Assembly (NCBI GenBank): GCA_963666515.2
Contig: OY762897.2
Location: 3,264,001 to 3,328,000, forward strand
Length of the DNA stretch: 64,000 nt
Origin: Candidatus Binatia bacterium
GTDB taxonomy: Bacteria > Desulfobacterota > Binatia > UBA9968 > JAJDTQ01
Direction of reading: 5' to 3'
Shown: positions 2,955 to 53,368 of the stretch, in pieces
How positions within the stretch are numbered: the stretch's first letter is position 1
Layout of the letters: every line of letters starts with the position of its first letter
Program-made: the position numbers and the translations under genes
Notes under the pieces: generated by a model
The model's input: only the letters and a program-made list of their open reading frames with translations
Database searches by the model: none
What the model was told of the DNA's origin: nothing

Positions 2955-4289
2955 TCACGCTTCCCGCACCGCGGCGACGCCCTCGCCCGTCTCCAGCCAC
3001 CAGCGCTCCAGGTCCCGGAGGGAGCGTTCGGCCATGAGCTCCTTCTTGCGCCGCCCCTTCGCCTTGACCGGCAGATCCGGGAAAAGGCCGAAGTTGACGT
3101 TCATGGGCTGGAAGTCTTCCCTCCCGGTATCGGAAATGTAGCGAAGCAGCGCGCCCAGGGCGGTGGTGGCCGGCGGCGTCACCGGCTTCCCGCTAGCAGC
3201 CAGGCGGGCCGCGTTGACCCCGGCCAGGAGCCCGGACGCGGCCGACTCGATGTATCCTTCGACGCCGGTGATCTGTCCGGCGAATAAGAGCCGCGGCGCC
3301 CCGCGCCATTGCAGCGTGGGCAAGAGGTGCCGCGGCGCGTTGATGAAGGTGTTGCGGTGCAGGCTGCCGTAGCGCACGAACACCGCGTCGGCCAGCCCGG
3401 GAATCAGCGAGAAGACCCGCTTCTGCTCGGGATACGTCATCTTGGTCTGGAAGCCCACGAGGTTGTACAGCGTGGCCTCGCGGTTCTCCTGGCGCAACTG
3501 CACCACCGCGTAGGGCCGCTGCCCGGTGGCCGGGTCCACCAGCCCGGTGGGCCTCAGCGGGCCGAAGGCCAGGGTCTCCCGCCCTCGCCGGGCCATCTCC
3601 TCGACCGGGAGGCAGCCCTCGAAGAAGCGCTCGAAGCTCCGCACCGGCACCTTCTCCGCAGCGGTGACCTCGTCCACCAGCCGGTAGTAGTCCTCCCGGC
3701 TGAGCGGCAGGTTCAGGTAGTCGCCGGGCTTCTCGTCGTAGCGGGAGGCGCGGAACGCCACCGACGAGTCCACGGACTCCGCGGTGACCACCGGGGAGAT
3801 GGCGTCGTAGTAGTAGAGGTGCTCGGCCCCCAGCAGCTCGCCGATGCGCTGCGAAAGCGGCTGCGCGGTGAGGGGCCCGGTGGCGATGATGGTCAGGCCG
3901 GGCGGAACCGTCTCCAGCTCGCGCCGCATCAGCCGCAGGCCCGGCAGGGACGCCACCTTTTCCGAAACGGCCTCGGCGAACCGCGTGCGGTCAACCGCCA
4001 GCGCGGAGCCCGCGGGCACCTGGTGCTCTTCGCCCACGGTGAGGATCAGGGAGCCCATGCGCCGCATCTCTTCCTTGAGCAGCCCGGCCCCCGCGGTCAG
4101 CGACCGGGAACGGAACGAGTTGCTGCACACCAACTCGGCCAGATGGCCGGTGGCGTGGGCCTCGGTCCGGGTGACCGGCCTCATCTCGTACAGGTCCACC
4201 GGCACACCCCGCCGGGCGAGCTGCCAAGCGGCCTCGCATCCGGCGAGACCGCCGCCCACGATGGTGACACGTTGGATGGCTTCGTTCAT
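2955..4289 (-). CDS. trmFO: tRNA (uracil-54)-methyltransferase TrmFO (Gid)
   Basis: [55 protein letters not shown]. Confidence 0.95.
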
Positions 4290-4296
4290 TTCCCGC

Positions 4297-5454
4297 TCAC
4301 AGGCTCCCGGCTATCGCAGAGTTTAACGCATATCTCTTTCCTGGCAACTGCCTGAGCAGGCCCTGCAGCTCCATCTCCAGAAGCACCTCGCAGACCTGCT
4401 GCGCCGGCAGGCCCGTCCGGTGAATGACCTCGTCCATCTGCAGCGGTCCGGCCTCGAGGTCCCGCAGGATCGCTCCGGCCGGGCCTTCGAGGGGTGCCCC
4501 TCCGCCGGAAACGCCGCCGGAGCCGGTTGCCGTCGGGGTGGACGCAAGCGCCGAGGCAGGCAACTGCGGCGCGATCTCCTCGATGACGTCGGTCACGTCC
4601 TCCACCAGCTTGGCTCCCTGACGGATCAGCCGGTGGGGACCCCGGCTGCGGGCGGCGCCGGCCGGGCCGGGGACCGCGAACACCTCCCGGCCCTGCTCCA
4701 ACGCCCAGCGGGCAGTGATCAACGAACCGCTCCGCTCGGTGGCTTCCACCACCACCACGCCCAGCGAGAGGCCGCTGATGATCCTGTTGCGGGCGGGGAA
4801 GTGTCGCGACAAGGGAGCAGTCCCCATGGGATGCTCGGAAAGCACCGCGCCGCTCTCCTCGATGCGGCGGCAGAGGTCACGGTGCTCCGGCGGATAGGGC
4901 ACATCCACGCCCGAGCCCAGCACCGCCAGGGTGCGGCCGCCTCGGGACAGCGCCGTTTCATGCGCTTCGCCGTCGATGCCGCGGGCCATGCCGCTGACCA
5001 CGGCGACGCCGGCGGCCGCCAGACCCCGGCACAGCAGACGGGTCATCTCGCGGCCGTACTCGCTGGGCGCGCGGGTGCCGACCACCCCCACCGCCGCACG
5101 CCCGGCCGCGTCCGGCGAACCCTTGACGTAAAGCACAGGAGGCGGGTCGGGAAGGACGCGCAGGCGCTCGGGGTACGAGGCGTCGGAGTAGCGCAAGAGC
5201 AGGCATCCCGCGTCCCGCACCCGACGCATCTCGTCCGCCAGACGGTCCCAGCCCGAAAACGCCAGCAGGCCCTCGACCGCGGCGCGGCTCAGCCCGGGAA
5301 CCTCGCGCAACGCCACGCGACCGCCGAAGAAGGCATCGGTGGGGTCGGCGAAGAACTCCGCGATGCGCCGGAACCCGACGCACCCGAGCCCCGGCGTCTG
5401 TCCGAAGGCCAGCCACGCGAGGTCCCGCCGGCTCTCACCCGGCGCCCGGCTCAC
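4297..5454 (-). CDS. dprA: DNA-processing protein DprA
   Basis: [45 protein letters not shown]-terminal winged helix; GTG start overlaps the der stop. Confidence 0.92.
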
Positions 5455-6926
5455 CGTTGGCCCCGGCCCGCCCGCGGCCGCAGGGCCAGCCGCACCGGCG
5501 TGTGCTCCAGACCCAGCTCCGCGCGCAACGCCTTGACGAGGTAGCGCCGGTAGCCCGCGCCCACGCCTTCCGGATGGTTGACAAACAGCGTGAACGTCGG
5601 CGGCTGCACGTCCGTCTGGGCGCCATAGTAGAACTTCACCGGACGCCCGCGGAATTGCGGCGCGGCGTGCCTTTCGGTGAGGCGGCGCAACGCCCGGTTG
5701 AGCGCCGGCGTCCTGATCCACCGGCGCGTGGCGTTGCCCACCCGTATGACCGTATCCATGAGCTTCGTCATGCCCGACCCTTCCAATGCCGATAAGGATA
5801 CTATCGGCACGTGGTCGGCAAACGGTAGCCGCCGGTGCAAAAAATCCTGGTACACCCGAAGGCTCGACCGGTCCGTGTCCAGGAGGTCCCACTTGTTGAT
5901 GCCCAGGACCATGGCCTTGCCGCGCTGGAAGCCGTAGGACATGACCTGCGCGTCCTGGTCCGTCACCCCTTCGGAGCCGTCCAGCAGGTGGATCACCACG
6001 TCGCCGGCGTCCACCGAGCGCAACGCGCGGCTTACGCTGTAGCGTTCCACCGGGTCGACCACCCGTGCCTTGCGCCGGATTCCGGCCGTGTCCGTCAGGC
6101 GGCACGGGGTCTCGCGCCAGGTGAAGTCGGCCTGCAGCGCGTCCCGGGTGGTGCCCGGCCGCGAGTCCACCAGCGAGCGGTCGTAGCCCAACAGCCGGTT
6201 CACCAGCGTCGACTTGCCGACGTTGGGACGGCCCACGACGGCCAGCGCAAGAGGCTCGGCGGAATCGGGGTTCCCCTCCCGGCCGCGGGCGCCGGCGGCA
6301 TCCGGCGTGCCCTCCCGACCACGGGCGCCGGCGGCATCGAGGGTGTCCTCCCGACCCCGTGCCCGAGCGGATTCCGGTGAGGAGGCGGAAGGCATTGCCG
6401 GCGCCCGGTCCGGCCCCGGCGGCAACGCGTCCACCACCTCCTGCATCAGGTCCGCCACCCCCAGCCCGTGCTCGGCGGATAGCGGGAACAACCGCTCCGC
6501 GCCGAGCCGGAAGAACTCGTAGAGGTCGCTCTCGCGGGGGCCGGTGTCCAGCTTGTTCACCGCGTAGAACACCGGCTTGGGTGCCTGCCGCAGCAGCTCC
6601 GCCGCAGCCGTATCCAGCGGCGTGGGCCCAGCGCGGCCGTCCATGAGGAATACGATGACGTCGGCCTCGTCCACCGCGGTCAGGGTCTGCTTGAATATCC
6701 GGCCCTTGAGCCCCTCGCGCTCGTCCGGCTCCAGTCCGCCGGTATCCACCAGCATGAAGCGGTGGCGGCGCCACGCCACCGGGTTGTAGTTGCGGTCACG
6801 GGTCACACCGGGCTGGTCGTCCACAATGGCGCGCCGCGCCCGGCTCAGGCGGTTGAACAGCGTGGACTTGCCCACGTTGGGCCGCCCCACGATGGCCACC
6901 ACCGGCATGTTTTCGGGAGTGCTCAT
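5451..6926 (-). CDS. der: Ribosome biogenesis GTPase Der (EngA)
   Basis: Two GRPNVGKST G-domains, DTGG/DTAG, NKLD/NKWD, KH-like C-terminus. Confidence 0.96.
   Translation of the reverse strand: MSTPENMPVVAIVGRPNVGKSTLFNRLSRARRAIVDDQPGVTRDRNYNPVAWRRHRFMLVDTGGLEPDEREGLKGRIFKQTLTAVDEADVIVFLMDGRAGPTPLDTAAAELLRQAPKPVFYAVNKLDTGPRESDLYEFFRLGAERLFPLSAEHGLGVADLMQEVVDALPPGPDRAPAMPSASSPESARARGREDTLDAAGARGREGTPDAAGARGREGNPDSAEPLALAVVGRPNVGKSTLVNRLLGYDRSLVDSRPGTTRDALQADFTWRETPCRLTDTAGIRRKARVVDPVERYSVSRALRSVDAGDVVIHLLDGSEGVTDQDAQVMSYGFQRGKAMVLGINKWDLLDTDRSSLRVYQDFLHRRLPFADHVPIVSLSALEGSGMTKLMDTVIRVGNATRRWIRTPALNRALRRLTERHAAPQFRGRPVKFYYGAQTDVQPPTFTLFVNHPEGVGAGYRRYLVKALRAELGLEHTPVRLALRPRAGRGQR
6264..6371. 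repeat. In-frame 36-bp degenerate tandem repeat x3 in the Der inter-G-domain linker
   Basis: Units start at 6264, 6300, 6336; protein ARGREDTLDAAG/ARGREGTPDAAG/ARGREGNPDSAE. Confidence 0.85.
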
Positions 6927-6948
6927 GATCGGGGGAAGTTGTCGTCGA

Positions 6949-7884
6949 TCACAACCCGAAGGCCTCGAGGCTCCGGGGGTCCCGGCTCCAGCCGGGCGCG
7001 GCCTTGACCGCCAGATCGAGGTAGACGCGGCAGCCGAGCAGGCGCTCCAGGTCCTCCCGGGCCGCGCTGCCGATCTCCTTGAGCGCCGCGCCGCGCTTGC
7101 CGATGAGGATCGGCTTGTGGCTCTCCCGCTCGGTGTGGATGGTGGCGGCGATGACCACGAGGCCGCCGCCGTTCTTCTCCTCGAAGCTCCGTACCGACAC
7201 CGCGGTGCCGTAGGGGATCTCCTGGCGGGTGTGCAGGAAGACCTTCTCCCGGACGATCTCCGCGGCGATGAACCGCTCCGTCTGGTCCGTCAGCTCGTCC
7301 TCCGGGAAATAGCGGGGACCGGGCGGCAGCCGCTTCAGCATCCCCTCCAACAGCAGCGGGACGTTCTCCCCGGTCCGGGCGCTGATGGGTACGATCTCCC
7401 GCTCCGGCAGCAGCTCGGCCAAGCGCGCCATCACCGGCAGCAGCCGTCCCTTGGACACCGCGTCGATCTTGTTGAGCGCGATCACGGTCTCGCGCCGGCT
7501 GCCGGACAGTATCCCGGCGATGTCCTCATCGTCCCCCCGCAGGCCGCCGCGGGCGTCCACCACCCACACCACCGCCTCCACGTCCCCCAGGGAACGTCTG
7601 GCCACGTCCACCATGCGCCGGTTCAGCAACGACCGCGCACGGTGGATACCCGGCGTGTCCAGCAACAGGATCTGCCCCTCCGGCAGGGTCTTGATGCCCA
7701 TGATCCGGTTCCGGGTAGTCTGGGGCCGGGGCGAGACAATGGCGATCTTCTCCCCCAGGAGCTGGTTCAGCAGCGTGGACTTCCCCACGTTGGGCCGGCC
7801 CAGGATCGCGACGAAGCCCGAGCGGAAATCCTCCGGAACAGGCGCTTCCTTCTGCTCTCCGCGCGTAGGGTCGATGGCGGCCAT
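6949..7884 (-). CDS. era: GTPase Era
   Basis: GRPNVGKSTLLN, PQTTRNRI, DTPGIH, NKID, EIVREK, KH domain IGKRG. Confidence 0.96.
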   Translation of the reverse strand: MAAIDPTRGEQKEAPVPEDFRSGFVAILGRPNVGKSTLLNQLLGEKIAIVSPRPQTTRNRIMGIKTLPEGQILLLDTPGIHRARSLLNRRMVDVARRSLGDVEAVVWVVDARGGLRGDDEDIAGILSGSRRETVIALNKIDAVSKGRLLPVMARLAELLPEREIVPISARTGENVPLLLEGMLKRLPPGPRYFPEDELTDQTERFIAAEIVREKVFLHTRQEIPYGTAVSVRSFEEKNGGGLVVIAATIHTERESHKPILIGKRGAALKEIGSAAREDLERLLGCRVYLDLAVKAAPGWSRDPRSLEAFGL

Positions 7885-7890
7885 CGGTCC

Positions 7891-7918
7891 ATTATGGCAC
7901 GGACGAAGGGCAGGTCAA
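7891..7918 (-). promoter_or_regulatory. Putative sigma70 promoter of era (possibly leaderless)
   Basis: TTGACC-16-CATAAT with TG extension, 6 nt before the ATG. Confidence 0.5.
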
Positions 7919-8032
7919 TCCACAGTCCTGACGAGCGCAGACCGGCATGGAGTGGGCGTTTCACCCCGGTGCTCACGGCACGACCACCGGCGTTGACTTC
8001 GTGATGGCCCATATTTTGCGGCGAAGTAGAGG

Positions 8033-8341
8033 ATGCAATGGTACAGGTACATCGAAGACTCCGAATGGGAGGATATAACCAATAGCGGGATGCTGAAACC
8101 GGGGCGCAATAGCTGCGGATCCGGCAAGTGGTTGGCCAGCAGCGAAGAGGCTGCATGGCGGTGGGGGAGAGCACTCGACGAGCGTTTTCCCGGTCGGGTT
8201 GTGGTTCTGGATCTGGACGATGACATCGCCGAGAGGGCCAGGCTCGTTGCCAACCTTGACGGCATTGGACATGCAGCGTACATTGACTCCGACGACTTGT
8301 GGCGGCTTCGGATTGTGGACATACGGAGGTACGAAGGATGA
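8033..8341 (+). CDS. Small hypothetical protein, possible ADP-ribosyltransferase-fold toxin domain
   Basis: SD GAGGA; lower GC than flanks; YRxxxxxEWxxIxxSG...GKWLA...VVVLDL...LDGIG pattern recalls Rhs C-terminal toxin domains. Confidence 0.55.
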   Translation: MQWYRYIEDSEWEDITNSGMLKPGRNSCGSGKWLASSEEAAWRWGRALDERFPGRVVVLDLDDDIAERARLVANLDGIGHAAYIDSDDLWRLRIVDIRRYEG

Positions 8342-8664
8342 GACGTCCCGGACAACACGCGGTGTTCGCCACCTTCCGTCCCGCAGACGATCGGACCCGG
8401 GCGGTACTGCGTCGGGGCAAGCCCGTGAGCAGTCTTGCCCGCTTCACGGGCACGGACACGCCGCCAGCCAGCCTGTTGATGGATGCCTGTCAAAAGAGCG
8501 ACAACCTTGTCCGTATCGAACTTCTGGTACACGCCGAGCGAACGGAACAATTGCCCGTAGGCAGCAACTTCGAACTGGTGGCCGGAGATGCGTTGTTGGG
8601 ATACGGGACGATCCTTCCCCGTGCTACGGGGAAGGATCCGGCTGATGTGAAACCGCCAGGCTAA
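8338..8664 (+). CDS. Small hypothetical protein, possible immunity/antitoxin with EF-Tu domain III-like C-terminus
   Basis: ATGA overlap with upstream gene; GSNFELVAGDALLGYGTIL resembles EF-Tu GLRFAIREGGRTVGAGVV. Confidence 0.5.
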   Translation: MRRPGQHAVFATFRPADDRTRAVLRRGKPVSSLARFTGTDTPPASLLMDACQKSDNLVRIELLVHAERTEQLPVGSNFELVAGDALLGYGTILPRATGKDPADVKPPG

Positions 8665-8752
8665 CGAAACCCCGCCCTGAACGTTCGCTGAATCGAATTC
8701 TGTCCCCAGAAACGTTTGCTGGCGGTCTCGCCGGGAATCCTCGTCCGCCGCC

Positions 8753-11700
8753 TCACCCTGCCCGCCGCACGTGGATGAACGTGCGCAGCGCCAGATCCAG
8801 CAGGAAGACGCCCAGGCCGGCGGCGGCCAGCGCCCACCAGATGCCCCGGGCGGAACCGGCGGCGTCGGGGTCGGCGGTGAACAGGCGCTCGATGTCCTCG
8901 GCCAGGGTTTCCTCCCGCAACACCTTACCGCCGGTCTCCTGGGCCAGCCGTTCCATCAGCCCGGTGTCGGCGTCCATTTCGCGGTACTCCCTGGAGAAGG
9001 GCACGATGAAGGGGACGGTGAGGGCCACGGGGGGCGCGCCAGAAGGGCCCGGCGGCTGCTTCACGGTGAGCAGGTTGATGCCCCGGCGCGGCGTGGCGAA
9101 GCTCGTGCGGTAGCGGCCGGGAGCCACCTGCCGGAACGCTTCCTGTTGCAGGGTCTCGTCGGCCCGTGTCAGCAGCCCTTGCAGCTTCAGGTGGTTCACC
9201 GGCCGTCCCGAGGCTGAGAAGAGGTCCACCACCGCCCTCATGACCTCTCCCTCCCTCACGAAGTCCGTCCGCAACCGCTGGTCCGACACGCTCCTCACCG
9301 CCAGCCGGGCCATCTGCGCGGCCCACCTGGGGAACGCCGGCCACTGCACCCAGTGGCGCCCCCACCTGCCGGAAACGTCGGAGGTGAACGCGTACACCCG
9401 GCCCAGGCCGTAGCGCCACGAGACCAGCAACGGGTCCTCGCCGGCGCGCGCGTGGACCTCGGCTCCGGGCTTCACATGGGTCAGGACGTAGCCCAGTATC
9501 CGCGGCAACGGCTCGCCCGAGAGGCCGCGCATGGGGCCCGCCGGCCCCGCTGCCACCGGGGTCACGGTCTTTTCCACCAGCAGGTCCCGGGAGATCAGCA
9601 GCGTCTCGGTGGTGAAGATCTGCGGGATGGTCCGCGGGTCCACGCTGGCATAGCTCCGGCCCTTGCCGCCCTGCGCGAGCTGGGTCATGAGACGGCGGTT
9701 GGCGTCGCCGCCGATGGACACGGTGGAGACGGTGATCCGCTCCCGGGCCATGCCGCTCACCTGTTCCAGCAAGTCCTCCTTTTCGGTGAGCCCGTCCGAC
9801 AGCACCAGCACGTGCTTGATGGCGGCCTCCTTGGCCGCCAGCGCCCGGCGGCCTTCCACCATGGCCTTGTGGAGGTCGGTGCCGCCGTCGGAGCTGAGCG
9901 CGGCCACGTCGTCGGCGATGCTCTCGCTGCCGCCGGCCGCGCGGAACGGCACCACCCACTGCCACTGGGAGTCGAACGCCAGGATGCCCACCTCGTCGGT
10001 GGGGTTGAGCAACTCCGCGGACGCCATGGTGGCCGCCTTGGCCAGGTCCAGCTTGGTGGTGCCGTAGGGGCCGCTGCCCATGCTCCCCGACTTGTCCACC
10101 ACGAAGAGCAGCGCCACGTGGGGCAGCTCCATGCGCGCCGGCGGCCGCATCTCCACCGGGAGCGTCTGCTCCAGCGGCGTCCGGTAGTAGCCCCCGGCGC
10201 CGTAGCTCCGGGTCCCGCCCAGCACGATGAGGCCGCCTCCGAGGTCGCGCACGAACCGCTCGATGCGTTCCATCTTCACCTGCGAGAGCTGGTAGGCGGG
10301 CACGTTGTCGAGGATCAGCAGGTCGAAGCCCGACAGCTCGGGCAGCGTGAGGTTGGCCCGCGCCGGGGTCTCCTCCACCACGTCGTACCCTTGCACCTGC
10401 AACGCCTCGGCCATGAAACGCCGCCCCGCGTCGGCGCCGTGGAGGTACAGGACCCGCGAGGGTCCCTTGACGCTCACGATGCCCTGCAGCAGGTTGTTCT
10501 CCGCCAGCACGTCCGCGGCCGCGTCCACCATCAACTCGTAGGTATGGGCGCCGCGGCGCTCCAGGCTGTCGGTGAAGCTGAGCCAGTTGGCGCCCGGCGC
10601 CAGCTCCCGGCGGGCGGAGCGGATGACGCGCCCGTCCCGCAGCAGGGTGACGGCCGCGGACGACGCCCGGGCGCTGGTGAGCGCGGCCTTGATCTCGAAG
10701 GTCTCGCCGCTGTCCACTACCGAAGGCACGGTGAACTCCGACAGGTAGACCTCGTTCCTGCCCTCGGCGAGGCTCACGGGATACGGCCACACCGCCACCC
10801 CGTGGGACCGCAGCATGGGCAGCACCCGCTCCACCGAGCCGCGGTTCTCGTTGGCGTCGGAGATGAGCAGGATGCGGCTCTCGCGCTCCTCGCTCAACTC
10901 GCCCAGGGCGCCCTGGAGCGCCGCTCCGAGATCGGTGGCGTCGCGCTCCGGCGGGGGCGGAAGGTCGCTCACCGGAAGCTCGTGGGTGGGCAGGAACTCC
11001 CACTGCGGACGGCGCGCGAAGGAGAACAGGCCCAGCCGCACCTTGGGGTCCACCAGTTCCCCGGCCTGCTCCAGCACGTCCGCGGCCCGCACACGGGCCT
11101 CCTCCCCGACGCTGTGGGAAAGGTCCACGGCCATCACCACGTCCAGCTCGGGATCCTCGGCGAGGACCCGCGGGTTCACCAGCGCCACCACCAGCAGCGC
11201 CACCGCCGGCGCCCGCAGCCACAGCGGGAGCAGCGAACGCCGGGCGCGGCAGACCACCACGCTCTCCGCCAGCAGCAGCGCCAGGGCCAGGACCAGCAGC
11301 GCCGGCCACAGGTCGAGGCGGGCGCCGCGGCCGCTCTCGGCCACGCGCGCGGCCGCCGAGGCCGGCGGCTCCGCCCGGTAAGCGGGACGGATGCGGGACT
11401 CCTCCTCGCTGAACAGGTTCACCCCGAACTCGCCCTCCCCGTGCTTTCCCCGGAACCGGTAGAAGCCGACCTCCGCGGTGTCGGCGTAGGCGCCCTGGCG
11501 CTCCCGGATACGCACCGGGCTGCTGTCGCCGGAGGGGTTCACGAACACGAGAGCCTCCTCGTCCACGCCGACGTCGGCGACGAACGGCAGGCCCGCGGCC
11601 ACTTGGCTGGCGGGAAACTCCCGGGCCGTGGGCCGGAACCAGGAGAAGGCGTTGCGCACCAGCAACGGGAACGAGACCCGGAACGGCAGGTCCGACCGGG

Positions 11701-13090
11701 TGAGGTCGAAGGCGAAGACCAGGGCCTTGAGATCGCCGGACTCCACCGCGTGGATCAGCGGCCCGCGTTCGGATTCGGCCAGCGACACGCCCCCGCCGTC
11801 CGCCACCAGCTCCAGCGCGTCGCGCACGTAGAGCCCGTCCAGGCGCACGCCCGCGGCCAGCGGGTGGTCGGAGCCGGTGGAGACCAGCGCTGGCCGCGGG
11901 GTCTCTCCGGCCACGCGCAGGGGCAGACCTTCGGCCACCGTGCGGATGAGGATGAAGTTGCCGCGGGCCAGCGGCGGCGCCGGCACCCGGTCCAGCATCA
12001 CCACGTCGTAGGCGGCCACCTGCTCGGTCACGCGGTCCACCGGGATGCGGTCGATGCGGGCCAGGGTGACGTGGGGGAAATAGCGCAGCAGGCGCTCCAG
12101 GAACGGGTTGCCGGGCCCCACGTACAGCACCCGCGTGGGGCGCTCGTCGGGAAAGGCCAGGAAGGCGCGGTTGTCGGTGCGCAGGTCGTCATCCACCGCC
12201 AGCAGCGCGGTGGCGCGCCCCCGCAGGGGGCCGGGGACGCCGTAGATCAGCACCTCCCGCGCCAGCGGCTCCAGCGACAACAGCGCCCGGCTCACCACCC
12301 GGTCCGACACCGTCACGACGAGGGGCGCGTGCACCGTCCGCTCGGTGAAGTTCTGCACCACCACCATGGCCTCGTACTCGTCGGCCCGCCCGGCCACCCG
12401 GCGGAACTGGAAACCCAGGATGCCGACGTTGTCGACGCCTCCGCGGACCTGCACGACCTCCAGGTAGGACGCCTCCAGCGGCAGCTCCTCGATGCCCTTG
12501 AAGGCGCCGTCGGTGATCACCACCACCCGGTGCGGCCCCTGGCGCTTGAGGAACGTGTGCGCCAGCAGCACCGCCTCCTTCACCGGGGACTCGGCGTCGG
12601 TGGCCGACAACCCCTCGGCGGCGCGCCGAAGCCCGGCCCGGTCCCTCGTGAAGGGCTGGATCACCCGGGGCTGCGCCGCCGCGCCGATGATCATCATGCG
12701 GTCGCCGGCGCCCAGCGCGTCGATACGCCGCAGCAGCTCGCCGCGGGCCGCATCCCAGCGCGAGCCCGACTCCCCCGCCGCCTTCATGCTGGCGCTCAGG
12801 TCCATCACCACCACGAGGTCGCGGCCGCCGCTGCCCACTCCCAGGAGCGCCGGCCACGCCAGCGCGGTGACGACCGCGGCGGCGGCCAGGAGCTGCAGGA
12901 TCAGCGGCAGGTTGCGGCGCCAGAGCCAGCCCAGGCGCCGGCCCACGGGCCTTTCACGCAGCACCTTCTCCAGCAGGAAGAGCGCGGTGACCGGGACCCT
13001 CGGACCCCTGGGCCGGAGGCTGTTGAGCAGCAGGATGAGCGGGACGGCCCCCAGCAGGATGAGAAAAGCCGCGGGAAAGAACCACAGCAT
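8753..13090 (-). CDS. Large membrane-anchored multi-VWA protein (BatA-type N-terminus, VWA and glutamine amidotransferase-like domains)
   Basis: N-terminal TM/BatA-like segment; MIDAS-like DLSASM, DLSHSV, DKSGSM; ITDG/ISDA/LSDG; internal and C-terminal TM helices. Confidence 0.85.
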   Translation of the reverse strand: MLWFFPAAFLILLGAVPLILLLNSLRPRGPRVPVTALFLLEKVLRERPVGRRLGWLWRRNLPLILQLLAAAAVVTALAWPALLGVGSGGRDLVVVMDLSASMKAAGESGSRWDAARGELLRRIDALGAGDRMMIIGAAAQPRVIQPFTRDRAGLRRAAEGLSATDAESPVKEAVLLAHTFLKRQGPHRVVVITDGAFKGIEELPLEASYLEVVQVRGGVDNVGILGFQFRRVAGRADEYEAMVVVQNFTERTVHAPLVVTVSDRVVSRALLSLEPLAREVLIYGVPGPLRGRATALLAVDDDLRTDNRAFLAFPDERPTRVLYVGPGNPFLERLLRYFPHVTLARIDRIPVDRVTEQVAAYDVVMLDRVPAPPLARGNFILIRTVAEGLPLRVAGETPRPALVSTGSDHPLAAGVRLDGLYVRDALELVADGGGVSLAESERGPLIHAVESGDLKALVFAFDLTRSDLPFRVSFPLLVRNAFSWFRPTAREFPASQVAAGLPFVADVGVDEEALVFVNPSGDSSPVRIRERQGAYADTAEVGFYRFRGKHGEGEFGVNLFSEEESRIRPAYRAEPPASAAARVAESGRGARLDLWPALLVLALALLLAESVVVCRARRSLLPLWLRAPAVALLVVALVNPRVLAEDPELDVVMAVDLSHSVGEEARVRAADVLEQAGELVDPKVRLGLFSFARRPQWEFLPTHELPVSDLPPPPERDATDLGAALQGALGELSEERESRILLISDANENRGSVERVLPMLRSHGVAVWPYPVSLAEGRNEVYLSEFTVPSVVDSGETFEIKAALTSARASSAAVTLLRDGRVIRSARRELAPGANWLSFTDSLERRGAHTYELMVDAAADVLAENNLLQGIVSVKGPSRVLYLHGADAGRRFMAEALQVQGYDVVEETPARANLTLPELSGFDLLILDNVPAYQLSQVKMERIERFVRDLGGGLIVLGGTRSYGAGGYYRTPLEQTLPVEMRPPARMELPHVALLFVVDKSGSMGSGPYGTTKLDLAKAATMASAELLNPTDEVGILAFDSQWQWVVPFRAAGGSESIADDVAALSSDGGTDLHKAMVEGRRALAAKEAAIKHVLVLSDGLTEKEDLLEQVSGMARERITVSTVSIGGDANRRLMTQLAQGGKGRSYASVDPRTIPQIFTTETLLISRDLLVEKTVTPVAAGPAGPMRGLSGEPLPRILGYVLTHVKPGAEVHARAGEDPLLVSWRYGLGRVYAFTSDVSGRWGRHWVQWPAFPRWAAQMARLAVRSVSDQRLRTDFVREGEVMRAVVDLFSASGRPVNHLKLQGLLTRADETLQQEAFRQVAPGRYRTSFATPRRGINLLTVKQPPGPSGAPPVALTVPFIVPFSREYREMDADTGLMERLAQETGGKVLREETLAEDIERLFTADPDAAGSARGIWWALAAAGLGVFLLDLALRTFIHVRRAG

Positions 13091-47030: not shown

Positions 47031-47072
47031 AAACAAAAAACAGGGCCGCCCCGTGGCGGAGCGGCCCTGTTT
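47031..47072 (-). terminator. Intrinsic terminator of the left porin gene
   Basis: Stem AAACAGGGCCGC/GCGGCCCTGTTT with U-tract on the minus strand, just past stop at 47096. Confidence 0.85.
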
Positions 47073-47095
47073 GCTATTCGGTTCGGGATGAACCG

Positions 47096-48478
47096 CTAGA
47101 ACTTGTATTCGATGACGAAAGTGAAGACGTTGAAAGAGTCCTTGCCGTCTTCGGTTATCACGTCCTTGAAGTTCTGGCCGGGGCAGGCGCCCTCACAACC
47201 GAAGGTATCCCACACACCGTGGATCTGCATCCAACCGCCGGGAACGTTGTAGACAACCGCCACTCCGGTGTTGGTCACGTCGGAGCTGTCGCCCGCATAT
47301 TCGACCTCGGCCGCGCTGTAGAGCGGAGCTATGTAGACACCGCCTTCACCCTTGCTTCCACCCATAATGCCGCTCTTGGGCCCCCACAGCCATACCCGTG
47401 CCGCAAGCCGAATGTCCGAAGCTTCGACATCGACGCCGCCGCCCGGATCCCTCTCATAGGTAGCGTAATTGGCGGAGAGCGACAGCCAGTTCAACGGGGA
47501 CCACCCCAAGCCGTGGGACATATACGTGATGTCATAGTTAGTGCCCGCCGTCCCCTCGATATCGATCAAGGTCGCCCTTTTCGCCAAGTTGGGGGTACGG
47601 GCTCTCACACGGACCGCATCATCAAAGGTCTTGCCATCGGAATGAGCCAATTGATCGGTATAGGCTGTGTAACCCACGCTGTACGAAAGGCTCGATACGG
47701 CGAGGCCGCCCATTTCCTTGGCATTTGCGAGAGGCTTCAGACCCAGCGCGAAACTTACGCTATTGCCGCTCTCTCCGGCCTCTGCTGCTTCGTTCTTACC
47801 GTCCTGGCCCCACGCCAGTTGCAGGTGACTGATCTTGGAAATACCCATACCGGGCAACTTCTTCCAGGACAGCACGAAACTTCCGTCTTGCTGTCCGCCG
47901 ATTCCCAAGCCATCCAGAAGCGGGCTGTCTTCCGTACGGAAAGCGCCTGCCTGCGTATTGCCACTAAAGGACGGACTGTAGCCCCAGCCGAAGCTCGGGA
48001 GCCACGGGCTCATCTTGTCGAAATTGATGTATCCGTCGCCACCGAAGCTGGTGCCAGTGCCACCCTCGTTGAGAAGCCAAGTGACCGCGTAGAACCCCTG
48101 CTGGGACGTGACGTTGATCGTCGGCCGAAAACGCCGCACGCGAAGCTCCAGGTTCTGGTAGCCCTTCTCTTTATTCTCGTTGCTCAGCCATACGCTGTGG
48201 TAGACCTGCAGCCTCTGCGTGAAACGGATGCTCCAGTTGTTGTCCGCCGCGGCGATCGTCAGACCACCACCCGGCTTATACTTGAACGACGGCCCCTTCA
48301 TCTCGGCGGCCAGTGCACTCTCCTGGTTCTGCTTCAGTTGCGCCAGTTCCCGTTCCAGGGCCTGGATCCGCGTGTCCACGTCAGACGCCTGGACCGGCGA
48401 TGCCGCCAGCGCGAGGGCTCCCGTCAAGACCACGGCGCTTGCGAGACCGAGCGCCCTTTTCAGAAACACCATATTCAT
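47096..48478 (-). CDS. Outer-membrane beta-barrel porin-like protein, copy A
   Basis: Strong SD AAGGAGGAGG, signal peptide (VQA), coiled coil, ELRVRRFRP (OprO/P-like), alternating beta strands, C-terminal IEYKF. Confidence 0.8.
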   Translation of the reverse strand: MNMVFLKRALGLASAVVLTGALALAASPVQASDVDTRIQALERELAQLKQNQESALAAEMKGPSFKYKPGGGLTIAAADNNWSIRFTQRLQVYHSVWLSNENKEKGYQNLELRVRRFRPTINVTSQQGFYAVTWLLNEGGTGTSFGGDGYINFDKMSPWLPSFGWGYSPSFSGNTQAGAFRTEDSPLLDGLGIGGQQDGSFVLSWKKLPGMGISKISHLQLAWGQDGKNEAAEAGESGNSVSFALGLKPLANAKEMGGLAVSSLSYSVGYTAYTDQLAHSDGKTFDDAVRVRARTPNLAKRATLIDIEGTAGTNYDITYMSHGLGWSPLNWLSLSANYATYERDPGGGVDVEASDIRLAARVWLWGPKSGIMGGSKGEGGVYIAPLYSAAEVEYAGDSSDVTNTGVAVVYNVPGGWMQIHGVWDTFGCEGACPGQNFKDVITEDGKDSFNVFTFVIEYKF

Positions 48479-48505
48479 GACCTCCTCCTTGGTAATCAGA
48501 GTTAT
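48042..48505. repeat. Left arm of 464-bp perfect inverted repeat
   Basis: Reverse complement of 48735-49198, compared line by line. Confidence 0.92.
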
Positions 48506-48627
48506 TGCAAACAGCGAATCTGCTTTACGCTTTCTACGTTTTTGGCGGTTTCTGTGCAATTGTACATAAGTATGCTTTTCTATCAACGAAAGGGGGCATA
48601 CGTTAACTAAGTAGTACTTGAGTATTA

Positions 48628-48656
48628 AATCTTGGGGCGAATCTGAGAGTTGTCAA
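48628..48656 (-). promoter_or_regulatory. Putative sigma70 promoter pointing at porin copy A
   Basis: TTGACA-17-AAGATT on the minus strand in the AT-rich spacer; -10 is weak. Confidence 0.5.
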
Positions 48657-48734
48657 CAACGACATGAGCCCACAACCCCCACATCTTCCCTGACCCTTCT
48701 CCGCCTGGGCACCACACGAGACCCGAAGAACGCC

Positions 48735-49198
48735 ATAACTCTGATTACCAAGGAGGAGGTCATGAATATGGTGTTTCTGAAAAGGGCGCTCGGTCTCGCA
48801 AGCGCCGTGGTCTTGACGGGAGCCCTCGCGCTGGCGGCATCGCCGGTCCAGGCGTCTGACGTGGACACGCGGATCCAGGCCCTGGAACGGGAACTGGCGC
48901 AACTGAAGCAGAACCAGGAGAGTGCACTGGCCGCCGAGATGAAGGGGCCGTCGTTCAAGTATAAGCCGGGTGGTGGTCTGACGATCGCCGCGGCGGACAA
49001 CAACTGGAGCATCCGTTTCACGCAGAGGCTGCAGGTCTACCACAGCGTATGGCTGAGCAACGAGAATAAAGAGAAGGGCTACCAGAACCTGGAGCTTCGC
49101 GTGCGGCGTTTTCGGCCGACGATCAACGTCACGTCCCAGCAGGGGTTCTACGCGGTCACTTGGCTTCTCAACGAGGGTGGCACTGGCACCAGCTTCGG
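48735..49198. repeat. Right arm of 464-bp perfect inverted repeat
   Basis: Starts 27 nt upstream of the ATG; first mismatch at 49199/48041. Confidence 0.92.
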
Positions 49199-50099
49199 CG
49201 GCGACGGATACATCAACTTCGACAAGTTGAACCCGTGGCTCCCGAGCTTCGGTTGGGGCGCCAGTCCGAGCTTGGACGTTGATACGCAGGCAGGCGCTTT
49301 CCGTACTGAAGACAGCCCGCTTACGAGTGCCTTGGGCATGGGCGGAGGGCAAGACGGGAGTTTCGTGCTATCCTGGAAGAAGTTGCCGGGTATGGGTATT
49401 TCCAAGATCACCCACCTGCAAGTGGCGGTGGGCCAGGACAATCAGGAAGAATGGAAAGCGGGAGACGACGGCAATAACGTAGGTTTCGCGCTGGGTCTGG
49501 AGCCTCTCGCAAATGCCAAGGAAATGGGCGGCTTCGCCGTATCGAGCCTTTCGTACAGCTTCGGTTACCAGGCCCATACCGACACGTTGTCCTCTGTGGA
49601 AGTCGTAGCCCCCAACTTGGCGCACAAGCCGATGTTGATCAATATCGACGAGGTGAACGCCGACACCACGTATATGTCCCACGGCTTGGGGTGGTCCCCG
49701 TTGAACTGGCTGTCGCTCTCCGCCAATTACGCTACCTATGAGAGGGATCCGGGCGGCGGCGTCGATGTCGAAGCTTCGGACATTCGGCTTGCGGCACAGG
49801 TATGGCTGTGGGGGCCCACGAGCGGCATTATGGGTGGAAGCAAGTCTGAAGGCGGTATCTCCATAGCTCCGCTCTACAACGTGGCCGATATCGACTTTGA
49901 CGGCGGAAACTCCGAGGTAACCAACACCGGAGTGGCGGTCGTCTACAACGTTCCCGGCGGTTGGATGCAGATCCACGGTGTGTGGGATACCTTCGGTTGT
50001 GAGGGCGCCTGCCCCGGCCAGAAATTCAAGGACGTCATAACCGAAGACGGCAAGGACTCTTTCAACGTCTTCACTTTCGTCATCGAATACAAGTTCTAG
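48762..50099 (+). CDS. Outer-membrane beta-barrel porin-like protein, copy B
   Basis: Paralogue of copy A: identical N-terminal third, divergent internal loops, C-terminal IEYKF. Confidence 0.8.
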   Translation: MNMVFLKRALGLASAVVLTGALALAASPVQASDVDTRIQALERELAQLKQNQESALAAEMKGPSFKYKPGGGLTIAAADNNWSIRFTQRLQVYHSVWLSNENKEKGYQNLELRVRRFRPTINVTSQQGFYAVTWLLNEGGTGTSFGGDGYINFDKLNPWLPSFGWGASPSLDVDTQAGAFRTEDSPLTSALGMGGGQDGSFVLSWKKLPGMGISKITHLQVAVGQDNQEEWKAGDDGNNVGFALGLEPLANAKEMGGFAVSSLSYSFGYQAHTDTLSSVEVVAPNLAHKPMLINIDEVNADTTYMSHGLGWSPLNWLSLSANYATYERDPGGGVDVEASDIRLAAQVWLWGPTSGIMGGSKSEGGISIAPLYNVADIDFDGGNSEVTNTGVAVVYNVPGGWMQIHGVWDTFGCEGACPGQKFKDVITEDGKDSFNVFTFVIEYKF

Positions 50100-50117
50100 C
50101 AGTTTATCCCGCACCGC

Positions 50118-50159
50118 AAAAAAAGGGGGCCGTTCCACCTTCGGAACGGCCCCTTTTTT
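50118..50159. terminator. Bidirectional-type intrinsic terminator after porin copy B
   Basis: A7-GGGGGCCGTTCC / GGAACGGCCCC-T6. Confidence 0.88.
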
Positions 50160-50315
50160 GGTGCCGGTCCGACCGTTTGTTCAACAATATTTGTTTTGTC
50201 AAACTCCCTCCCGAACACGACTCCTCGCGTTGAGAGCAATCCCCCCGCACCGTTTTCCCCAAGGCGCACCCTCCCGGAATGCAGGGAATGTGTCGGTATC
50301 CAATGAGCTTCCACA

Positions 50316-51272
50316 ATGACTACCGAATCCGACATTCACAACCTCGTCCTGTCATCGGCGGTTGCGCCCAACACGCGACTGGCCTACCGCAAGGGCTGGA
50401 ACTGCTTCACCGCGTATTGCGCGAAGGAACGGATCGCCGACCCGCTATCCGCCTCTCCGGAGACGGTCGCCCGCTTTCTTCTGGACTGCGCCACGCGGCC
50501 CCGTTCGGAACGAGGCACACCGTTGTCCATGGGAACGGTCTTCCTCTACAGCAGTGCCATTGCCAAACGATTCACCGACGCCGGAAGGACCGCACCCACC
50601 CATCACCCCACCGTCCGGGCGACGCTCAAGGGTCTAAGCCGTCTGAGGGGCACGGCCCCGCGGCGGGTCAAGGCATTGCGCGAGGGGCACGTGAGGGCGA
50701 TGATCGCCCAGTGTCCGAACTCGGTGATCGGGACGCGCGACGCCGCGGTCCTCGCGCTCGGTTTCGCCGCCGCCCTGCGCCGGTCCGAGATCTGTGCGCT
50801 GCACGTCGACGACGTGACCATCCTGTCGCCGCCTCAGGAACACCCCCGGCGGATGTTGCTCAGCATCCGCCGATCCAAGACCGATCCAAACGGCAAGGGT
50901 CAACCGATCGCCGTCCCGGAAGGCAAGACGGTCAAGCCCATCGACTGGGTGCAGGCGTGGCTGGCGGTATCGGGCATCACGCACGGACCGCTGTTCCGGA
51001 CCATGAAACGGGGCGGGGCGGTGCAGGAGAGACCGCTGCATCATTCCGATGTCCCGCGCCTGGTCAAGCGCTACGCAGCATTGATCGGGCTGGACCCGAA
51101 AGAGTTGTCCGGGCATTCCCTGCGGGCGGGCTTCGTCACCAGCGCCGCGGCGCACCATGCCCGGCTCGACAAGATCATGGCGGTCACCCGCCATACCAAC
51201 CCAGCCACGGTCATGGAATACATCCGTGACGCCGATGCGTTCTGCGATCACGCGGGTAGCGCATTTCTGTAA
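50316..51272 (+). CDS. Tyrosine recombinase, Cre-like
   Basis: NTRLAY..GW..F SAM-like domain; RDAA..LRRSEI, RSKTD, GHSLRAGF, TRH...MEY catalytic set. Confidence 0.92.
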   Translation: MTTESDIHNLVLSSAVAPNTRLAYRKGWNCFTAYCAKERIADPLSASPETVARFLLDCATRPRSERGTPLSMGTVFLYSSAIAKRFTDAGRTAPTHHPTVRATLKGLSRLRGTAPRRVKALREGHVRAMIAQCPNSVIGTRDAAVLALGFAAALRRSEICALHVDDVTILSPPQEHPRRMLLSIRRSKTDPNGKGQPIAVPEGKTVKPIDWVQAWLAVSGITHGPLFRTMKRGGAVQERPLHHSDVPRLVKRYAALIGLDPKELSGHSLRAGFVTSAAAHHARLDKIMAVTRHTNPATVMEYIRDADAFCDHAGSAFL

Positions 51273-51275
51273 TGT

Positions 51276-51323
51276 GCGTCCTTCGACTTCGCCTGTCCTG
51301 AGCCTGTCGAAGGGCTCAGGACG
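51276..51323. repeat. REP-like repeat with nested inverted unit
   Basis: GCGTCCTTCGACTTCGC-[CTGTCCTGAGCCTGTCGAAGG]-GCTCAGGACG directly after the recombinase stop. Confidence 0.75.
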
Positions 51324-51371
51324 AGCGGGTTGGTTGACATCGGGGCTGCCGGGAAGAAATAGTGTCACTTC

Positions 51372-52091: not shown

Positions 52092-53368
52092 TGCCGACCC
52101 ACCGCCGCACCGTCCTCGCCTGGTGCCTCTACGACTTCGCCAATTCGGCCTTCACCACCCTGGTGGTCACGTTCATCTACTCGGCGTTCTTCACCAAGGT
52201 CATCGCCCCGGACGAGATGACGGGCACGTGGCTGTGGTCCCGGAGCGTCAGCATCACCGCCATCGCTGTGGCCCTGCTGTCGCCGCTTCTCGGCGCCCTG
52301 GCCGACCGGGGCGGCTACCGCAAGCGCTTCCTGGGGTTCTTCACCCTGGTCGCGGTAGCCGGGTCGGCCGTCCTCTACACGGCCGCGCCAGGGGAAGTGG
52401 TCAAGGCGCTGCTCTGGTTCACGGCAGCCAACATCGCCTTCGAGATGTGCGGCGTGTTCTACAACGCTTTTCTGCCGGACGTGGCGCCGCCGGACCGGAT
52501 CGGGCGCGTCTCGGGTTACGGCTGGGCCCTGGGCTACGTCGGCGGCCTGTCCGCCCTGGGGCTGGCCCTGGTGGGGTTCGTCGACGCCGAGGTCCCGTGG
52601 TTCGGCTTCGAGAAGGAGGGCTACCAGCACATCCGCGCCACCAACCTGCTGGTGGCAGGCTGGTTCGCCGTCTTCAGCCTGCCACTGTTCCTGTGGGTGC
52701 CGGAAAGCGCGGCCCGACCCGGCGTCTCCGGCTCGCTTCTGTCCGACCCCTTCCGGCGCTTGGCCCGCACCATCCGTGAGATCCGGCGCTATCCCGACAT
52801 CTTCCGCCTGTTGCTCGCCCGCCTCTTCTACGCCGACGGCCTCAACACGGTCTTCGCCTTCGGCGGGATCTACGCGGCCGGCACCTTCGGCTTCACCTTC
52901 GAGGAACTGCTGGTCTTCGGCCTGGTGCTCAACGTGGCCGCGGGCATCGGCGCCTTCGCCCTGGGGTTCGTGGACGACTGGCTGGGCGGCAAGCGCACCG
53001 TACAGATCAGCCTGCTGGGCTTCATCGCCGCCACCCTGACCGCGGTGCTCACCGGCCGGCGCGCTCTCTTCTGGACCGCCGGCATCCTCAGCGGCATCTG
53101 CGCCGGGCCCAACCAGGCGGCGAGCCGCTCGCTCATGGGCCGTTTCGTGCCCGCGCACAAGCAGAACGAGTTCTACGGCCTGTTCGCCTTCTCCGGCAGG
53201 GCCACGGCCTTTCTGGGCCCCTTTCTGCTGGGCGAGTTGACGCGCCTGTTCGGCTCGCAACGCGCCGGCATGACGGTGGTGCTGGTCTTCTTCGTCATCG
53301 GCCTCGCGCTGTTGCAGCGGGTGGACGAGGAGCGCGGAAAGCAGCCCGAGAACGGGACAGGAGATTAG
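52088..53368 (+). CDS. MFS transporter (UMF1/ATG22-like)
   Basis: WCLYDFANSAF, FYNAFLP, GWALGYVGG, QAASRSL, EFYGLF; about 12 TM. Confidence 0.9.
   Translation: MMPTHRRTVLAWCLYDFANSAFTTLVVTFIYSAFFTKVIAPDEMTGTWLWSRSVSITAIAVALLSPLLGALADRGGYRKRFLGFFTLVAVAGSAVLYTAAPGEVVKALLWFTAANIAFEMCGVFYNAFLPDVAPPDRIGRVSGYGWALGYVGGLSALGLALVGFVDAEVPWFGFEKEGYQHIRATNLLVAGWFAVFSLPLFLWVPESAARPGVSGSLLSDPFRRLARTIREIRRYPDIFRLLLARLFYADGLNTVFAFGGIYAAGTFGFTFEELLVFGLVLNVAAGIGAFALGFVDDWLGGKRTVQISLLGFIAATLTAVLTGRRALFWTAGILSGICAGPNQAASRSLMGRFVPAHKQNEFYGLFAFSGRATAFLGPFLLGELTRLFGSQRAGMTVVLVFFVIGLALLQRVDEERGKQPENGTGD

Follow-up and report, generated by a model that had tools for sequence, protein, structure and literature searches.

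The window analyzed here comprises 64,000 nucleotides of contig OY762897.2 (assembly GCA_963666515.2, positions 3,264,001 to 3,328,000 of the forward strand) from a Candidatus Binatia bacterium, whose genome, G000 in our survey, consists of 4.66 Mb in two contigs with 65.8% GC. Two porin-like genes of the window, porA and porB, are oriented in opposite directions on either side of a short spacer, and a gene for a tyrosine recombinase follows porB (Table 1). Searches of the G000 genome found these two porin copies and this recombinase copy only. An earlier interpretation made from the letters of the DNA alone, hereafter the sequence-only reading, had proposed that the spacer is an inversion switch between the two porins.

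The inverted identity of 464 bp on which that proposal was built is exact (48042-48505 against 48735-49198), and the actual repeat is wider than had been noted, since 47789-48508 and 48732-49451 match in inverted orientation without gaps over 720 nt at 94%, and a second inverted match of 455 nt, also at 94%, lies near the 3' ends of porA and porB. As the inverted homology extends beyond the perfect arms and reaches the 3' ends, the two genes are whole-gene inverted paralogues. Outside the 464-bp arms their DNA differs at about 6-8% of the bases, such that a run of this length free of differences is not due to chance and points to recent homogenisation. The arms had been said to cover the Shine-Dalgarno (SD) site, the signal peptide and the first strands, and their content agrees with this (Table 1). 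Likewise, the unique spacer was properly described as AT-rich, at 48% GC against the 65.8% of the genome, and each gene has a terminator-like hairpin of its own. The only match of an Rfam search was a sub-threshold Thr_leader placed on the porA terminator.

Table 1. Coordinates of the elements of the porin locus in the window, followed by two related loci in other genomes of the genus (in coordinates of those loci).
Feature	Position	Strand	Description
Terminator-like hairpin 3' of porA	47038..47072	-	16-pair stem, then T-run
porA, 460 aa	47096..48478	-	Open reading frame (ORF); recombinase-distal; signal peptide, coiled-coil helix, beta-barrel; adjoins the candidate promoter module
Left arm of perfect inverted repeat	48042..48505		27-nt 5' untranslated region (5'UTR) with SD site plus porA codons 1-146; exact reverse complement of 48735-49198
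Unique spacer, candidate invertible segment	48506..48734		229 bp, 48% GC
Conserved candidate promoter/5'UTR module (P-module)	48506..48590	-	About 80 nt, reads toward porA; alignment of 9 pair genomes
Sigma-70-like site TTGATA-16-TACAAT	48586..48559	-	Inside the P-module, faces porA; consensus promoter scan
Sigma-70-like site TTGACA-17-AAGATT	48656..48628 (approx.)	-	Faces porA; second semi-conserved block, read from sequence
Right arm of perfect inverted repeat	48735..49198		5'UTR plus porB codons 1-146
porB, 445 aa	48762..50099	+	ORF; recombinase-proximal; adjoins the Q end of the spacer, without promoter
Bidirectional terminator hairpin 3' of porB	50120..50162	+	Hairpin 50126-50153, T-run on plus strand
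Tyrosine recombinase, 318 aa, candidate invertase	50316..51272	+	PF00589; starts 216 nt after the porB stop
Full porin plus truncated cassette, L038 (G010)	3402-11455		
Full porin plus truncated cassette, L039 (G023)	3630-11125		

The proteins encoded by porA and porB share 383 of 460 residues (83%). Neither matches a family of Pfam or NCBIfam at E values up to 0.01, Porin_O_P (PF07396) included, and their named relatives in the databases are all annotated as 'hypothetical protein', though the label porin-like proved right by fold. Close homologues also occur in some ENA assemblies. An AlphaFold2 model of PorA obtained from an alignment of 28 sequences (mean predicted local distance difference test score of 74.8) begins with the signal peptide and a helix (residues 32-59), which many successive antiparallel strands follow, and both proteins end in YKF. 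The best Foldseek matches of the model were OprO (4rjx and 4rjw) and OprP (2o4v) of Pseudomonas aeruginosa, with E values of 2e-13 to 1e-12 and template modelling scores of 0.61-0.70 over about 450 columns; the next ones were OmpT, OmpF, Omp32 and the database structure of that name, PorB. In addition, 23 of 30 matches of an Atlas feature search with the porin fell in PF07396 clusters, and the strand pattern assigned by DSSP fits a sixteen-stranded porin barrel, as far as a strand count that is not rigorous can tell. By their predicted fold the two proteins are thus OprO/OprP-like; however, they are only 13-15% identical in sequence to OprO and OprP, and they have an extra N-terminal helix, that of residues 32-59.

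All codon differences between porA and porB lie after residue 145 (62 replacement, 14 silent-only and 15 gap columns), and differences and indels cluster after residue 155, where 46 of 140 positions outside the predicted strands are changed against 31 of 165 inside. The ratio of nonsynonymous to synonymous divergence (dN/dS) is 1.04 over residues 156-460, and dS is uneven, with 0.018 in the arm, 0.233 in residues 156-320 and 0.043 in residues 321-460. Such a distribution is consistent with gene conversion in patches, combined with selection on the loops that is either relaxed or diversifying. Contigs of run X3, one of the sequencing runs compared below, contain four joints of the 'opposite strands' kind at homologous positions of porA and porB (window 47557-47801 / 49458-49652); mosaic alleles of another sample may account for them, although the sides of the joints, 32-54 nt, are too short to be relied on.

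An intact tyrosine recombinase about 215 bp after the second porin copy had also been claimed, and the gene is indeed found at that distance. Its product matches Pfam PF00589 (Phage_integrase) over residues 121-307 with 54.3 bits, for a cut-off of 27.1, and in the motifs ALRRSE, RRSKTD, GHSLRAG, TRHTN and MEYIR its Arg, Lys, His-x-x-Arg, His and Tyr have counterparts at the aligned positions of XerD (1a0p) and Cre (1pvp). These residues, which we take to be the catalytic ones, fall in invariant columns of a 14-sequence alignment, and the enzyme appears from its sequence to be intact and catalytically complete in 10 genomes. It was called Cre-like; it does align with Cre, but the name is no better founded than XerD-like, given E values in the PDB of 4.4e-5 for Cre and 8.5e-6 for XerD, both over the catalytic domain only. 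The NCBIfam models for XerC, XerD and XerA gave 18-46 bits against cut-offs of 220-371, which does not place the enzyme as an orthologue of Cre or XerCD. Among its own orthologues the recombinase is conserved at 80-87%, compared with 69-94% for the flanking core genes. Directly 3' of its stop codon, a repetitive extragenic palindromic (REP)-like element occupies window positions 51273-51340; it has 16 BLAST matches in the genome, contig depth over it is about ten times that on both sides (468 against about 40, run X1), and similar elements flank the recombinase and its neighboring cassette in genome G010.

The survey covered 28 species genomes of the genus; since these genomes are kin, the co-occurrence counts are not independent trials. 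A divergent porin pair is present in 9 of them (G000, G002, G005, G006, G007, G009, G011, G020, and G042), and in every one of the nine, the gene immediately downstream of one porin copy is a recombinase orthologue of 80-87% identity. The synteny check suggested by the sequence-only reading therefore finds the pair and the enzyme kept together. In G019, the recombinase adjoins the last 14 codons of a porin at the point where the contig ends. Thirteen further genomes have a single porin (G003, G004, G012, G013, G014, G015, G016, G017, G018, G021, G022, G041, and G043), and in none of them is the recombinase beside it, as seen directly at eight loci and as inferred for the other five, where no orthologue was found anywhere in the genome. 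Only G012 among the thirteen has an orthologue, located elsewhere. The order of genes in the single-porin genomes is a tetratricopeptide repeat (TPR) gene and the porin on the reverse strand, a response regulator on the forward strand and a major facilitator superfamily gene on the reverse strand; in the pair genomes, a forward porin and the forward recombinase are inserted as one block between the porin and the response regulator, and porA is the positional orthologue of the single porin. The 18 porin ORFs of the pair genomes are all open, with 443-530 aa, so that the claim of two intact frames extends to all nine. The upper value belongs to the recombinase-proximal porin of G042 (L051, 6625-8214), in which an in-frame insertion of about 250 bp follows residue 64.

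Other arrangements were seen in the remaining genomes. No porin match was obtained in G001 and G008, and G024 has two porins on the same strand and no recombinase, its locus (L040, 3478-9734) being a tandem duplication of the porin and the TPR gene on one strand. In G010 and G023, a full-length porin is accompanied, 4-5 kb away, by an inverted porin cassette truncated at its 5' end, from about residue 96 onward; the recombinase adjoins the truncated cassette in G010, but not in G023. This last architecture would vary the porin through exchange of coding segments.

The spacers are homologous across the nine pair genomes (229-403 bp), and in all of them the P-module lies at one end only, while the other end, Q, is loosely conserved. 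The same module is found about 100-110 bp upstream of the porin in single-porin genomes, reading toward it, as BLAST matches of 118-121 nt at about 80% (G003, G013, and G024a), as the exact motif (G021 and G023) or, in the rest of the single-porin-type loci, in variant forms recognized by eye. Its position upstream of a lone porin indicates that the P-module is the native promoter/5'UTR region of this porin family. A single clear promoter, facing porA, had been reported for the spacer. The site in question, TTGACA-17-AAGATT, is present in that orientation, with a counterpart of TTGGAA-N16/17-TAAAAT in the relatives (the alignment was judged by eye), and the consensus promoter scan of the spacer found no sigma-70-like site facing porB; however, a second site facing porA, TTGATA-16-TACAAT, lies within the P-module, such that the porA-facing site first noted is not the only one. 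A sigma-54 site reading toward porB (TGGC-N8-TGCA, 48543-48558) was considered and rejected, as its GG is lost in G009 and G005 and the module of the single-porin genomes reads toward its gene in the other sense and without the motif.

With the recombinase placed on the right, the P-module adjoins the recombinase-distal porin in six of the pair genomes (G000, G020, G007, G002, G009, and G042) and the recombinase-proximal one in three (G011, G006, and G005), and the spacers of G002 and G006 match over 224 nt at 80% in opposite orientation. One or more inversions of the promoter-bearing segment have thus occurred as the genus evolved. Two marks of an inverton can be recognized at the locus: inverted repeats bound a segment with a predicted promoter, and the two orientations both occur among related genomes. 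As the P-module adjoins porA in the present assembly, porA is predicted to be ON and porB to be silent.

The position at which the repeat ends is also conserved, 26-28 nt upstream of each ATG in the nine pair genomes and hence in 18 of 18 arms, and a 19-nt stretch of the 5'UTR that includes the SD site is invariant in all 18. The 5'UTRs of single-porin genomes differ from this 19-mer, except for a near-match in G021. An exact scan for it gave no match in metagenome contigs, and in genome contigs it gave seven pair genomes and four single matches, about the number expected by chance. An SD-centered dyad was noticed by eye (8 nt, an 8-nt gap and 8 nt, symmetric at 6 of 8 positions), which we do not claim as a recombination site. 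Arms of high identity measure 133-930 bp across the pair genomes and include runs of 115-701 bp free of any difference; although the two gene bodies have diverged strongly in G009 and G042, their first 304 bp and 210 bp, respectively, remain homogenised. Over long stretches the two copies of one genome are 92-99% identical in DNA, compared with 50-86% identity in protein between species, and they are sister to each other in six of the nine pair genomes.

In a tree of the recombinases, the porin-linked enzymes group together in a single clade with the G012 enzyme as nearest outgroup, and the enzymes of G010 and G023 and a second one of G011 branch further out. The G012 orthologue (83% identical) and the G011 paralogue (67%) both adjoin inverted repeats formed by duplicated TaqI_C specificity cassettes of an Eco57I-family Type IIG restriction-modification enzyme; these repeats measure 112 bp (perfect) and 131 bp (98.5%). 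An enzyme of this kind is absent from G000. Inverted restriction-specificity cassettes beside a recombinase are a recognized kind of inversion locus. The two restriction loci are L053 (G011, 6775-12470) and L055 (G012, 7842-10422), and the G012 copy appears by eye to be cut by transposase-like ORFs.

Systems with a comparable logic are known from other bacteria. According to PMC2268961, the vpma genes of Mycoplasma agalactiae, the vsp genes of M. bovis and the vsa genes of M. pulmonis, with the recombinases Xer1, Mbr and HvsR, share a conserved 5'UTR and signal-peptide region and have one promoter per locus and an adjacent tyrosine recombinase. That article also describes that inversions of the vpma type bring the promoter before another gene, that a xer1 knockout locks the phase, and that HvsR has dual substrate specificity. 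In terms of locus arrangement, the conserved 5' ends, the single promoter and the adjacent enzyme are all found at the porin locus as well. The locus of the window differs in that it has two genes only, that the cargo is a trimeric-porin-like beta-barrel of a diderm and not a lipoprotein, that the arms reach about 440 nt into the coding sequence, and that the host lineage is uncultured; in addition, dependence on xer1 was shown there by knockout, whereas the recombinase here is a candidate invertase through its co-occurrence with the pair. Restriction-modification specificity (hsd) loci are the second targets of HvsR, a parallel to the two contexts of the recombinase lineage described above.

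In the sap S-layer locus of Campylobacter fetus, opposed homologues with long conserved 5' regions enclose a unique promoter, and inversion swaps the expressed homologue with the ORFs left intact. This inversion is largely RecA-dependent and is not known to involve a dedicated neighboring recombinase. The porin locus is alike in its opposed homologues, its conserved 5' regions and its one promoter on the candidate invertible segment; however, the sap cargo is an S-layer protein encoded by more than two homologues, compared with a porin pair with a recombinase in the window. A third type is the ivr hsdS locus of Streptococcus pneumoniae, in which inverted repeats within coding sequence, beside a tyrosine recombinase, shuffle coding segments. 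This is the arrangement found with the recombinase relatives of G012 and G011; the porin locus of the window would instead move a promoter, and the cassettes of G010 and G023 would exchange coding segments. A word search of the literature revealed no porin pair switched by promoter inversion, within the limits of word matching, which can miss papers, and with supplements outside its scope.

We lean toward the reading that the 229-bp spacer is an inversion switch that selects the displayed porin, of the same kind as sap and vpma. The spacer would be an invertible promoter cassette lying between homogenised segments that encode the 5'UTR, the signal peptide and the first barrel strands, and the P-module would drive whichever porin adjoins it. 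A crossover between the arms would turn the spacer, place the P-module before porB and leave both ORFs intact, and after such a flip the loops of the porin on display would differ. The adjacent tyrosine recombinase would be the most likely catalyst, and gene conversion of the RecA type could maintain the identity of the arms. Taken jointly, a promoter toggle through recombination in the 5' arms, with porA ON, the recombinase as probable catalyst and homologous recombination homogenising the arms, has a somewhat better than even chance of being right. We infer that the module is active as a promoter, that flipping occurs within the population by crossover in the 5' arms and depends on the recombinase, and that it would benefit the cell by escape from phage or host. 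The switch proposed by the sequence-only reading accordingly stands as regards the conserved architecture with the recombinase in nine of nine pair genomes, the one-sided module, both orientations among species (six against three) and the tie of the recombinase lineage to a second inversion locus.

Several observations weigh against this switch. In quartet tests of informative sites in the coding region, the comparison of G002 with G011 gave 3 positional and 0 crossed sites, and that of G002 with G006 gave 2 positional and 5 crossed, such that some changes of orientation may stem from crossovers in the 3' homology. A crossover there would carry the gene body along with its promoter and leave expression unswitched; only an exchange in the 5' arms would bring a different variable region to expression. 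The patchy conversion of the whole genes, seen in the uneven dS, indicates that homologous recombination acts here and could drive inversion without the recombinase. No convincing dyad core site was found in the porin arms, in line with the earlier remark that no lox-like site could be seen, and blastn between these arms and the repeats of the restriction enzymes gave only 9-nt words and no common core site. Around distant relatives of the recombinase (35-52% identity, metagenome contigs), an inverted repeat of at least 40 bp was nearby in 0 of 56 loci, those with enough flank among the 80 fetched, a negative result weakened by the bias of short-read contigs against long repeats; the neighbors of these relatives are heterogeneous, five loci being mutually unrelated. 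Finally, when four sequencing runs were compared as Logan contigs, the contigs broke at the arms, and one contig of 289 nt consists of the spacer flanked by 30 nt at either end; an inversion becomes apparent only in sequences that extend across a whole arm. Of the words sampled from the G000 genome, runs X1-X3 contain 0.90-0.96. In the RNA library X6, from another host organism, a contig of 1356 nt covers 47057-48412 with 44 differences and no contig covers the variable part of porB, which is a weak hint of porA expression, as such libraries may contain DNA and the strain differs.

Part of this evidence would suit a real switch driven by general homologous recombination between the arms, as in C. 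fetus sap, with the recombinase acting elsewhere or as an accessory. The arms are far longer than a site-specific enzyme needs, the two copies are sister in most pair genomes, conversion tracts are patchy and the core site was not found; on the other side stand the recombinase adjacent to every pair and beside none of the thirteen single porins, the end of the repeat at the same nucleotide in all 18 arms, and the presence of the same recombinase lineage beside inverted restriction-specificity cassettes, and we hold this explanation to be improbable. That the perfect identity of the arms or the orientation of the spacer comes from an assembly artefact is far less credible still and can be given hardly any weight. 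Inverted repeats can be collapsed or polished to identity, and the contigs of the three DNA runs break at the arms; however, the same architecture recurs in nine separate assemblies with perfect stretches of differing lengths, and the contigs of those three runs match the spacer and the arms without difference.

A locus without a working switch was considered as well, and appears unlikely. In that case porA and porB would be separately regulated paralogues whose 5' ends stay similar through conversion and through selection acting on signal peptide and N-terminal helix; the recombinase would be what is left, after domestication, of whatever introduced the second copy, and the differences in orientation would be rare evolutionary accidents. 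Such an origin agrees with the insertion of the second porin and the recombinase as one block relative to the single-porin genomes, and separate regulation with the partial conservation of the Q end, which could hold an unrecognized promoter; the quartet test is ambiguous, and the breakage of contigs at the arms leaves the two orientations as a comparison among species. Yet no promoter-like site faces porB and the native module is present once per pair in nine of nine, the spacer does occur in both orientations among species, and the recombinase is intact, with complete catalytic residues in 10 genomes and a divergence like that of core genes. Neither an adjacent tRNA gene (none nearer than 56947 in the scan) nor an att-like direct repeat flanking the porin-recombinase block was found.

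Beyond the window, the switch may be one form of a wider scheme, which we put forward tentatively and with more doubt than confidence. One recombinase lineage in this sponge-associated genus of Binatia could have been retargeted between restriction-specificity cassettes and the major porin locus, the latter existing in graded forms that comprise one gene on its own, a promoter toggle of two genes, and an expressed gene accompanied by a 5'-truncated inverted silent cassette. Variation in the displayed porin would in that case be programmed, presumably as a defense against recognition by phage or host.

Apart from the porin locus, a transporter-like gene (window 52100-53368) follows the response regulator. 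The two genes share a strand in G000 and lie on opposite strands in each of the 17 relatives in which both can be seen. This corresponds to an inversion of about 1.3 kb specific to G000, for which a flanking inverted repeat was not found.

Phages commonly use porins as receptors, and hosts recognize them as well. If the spacer flips, the small and self-contained porin locus would amount to a programmed toggle by which a lineage represented solely by metagenomes alternates between two forms of a major outer-membrane channel. The logic of sap and vpma, with one mobile promoter and conserved 5' ends, would thereby extend to beta-barrel porins, and the toggle would give a handle on the pressure exerted by phages and hosts on unculturable symbionts.

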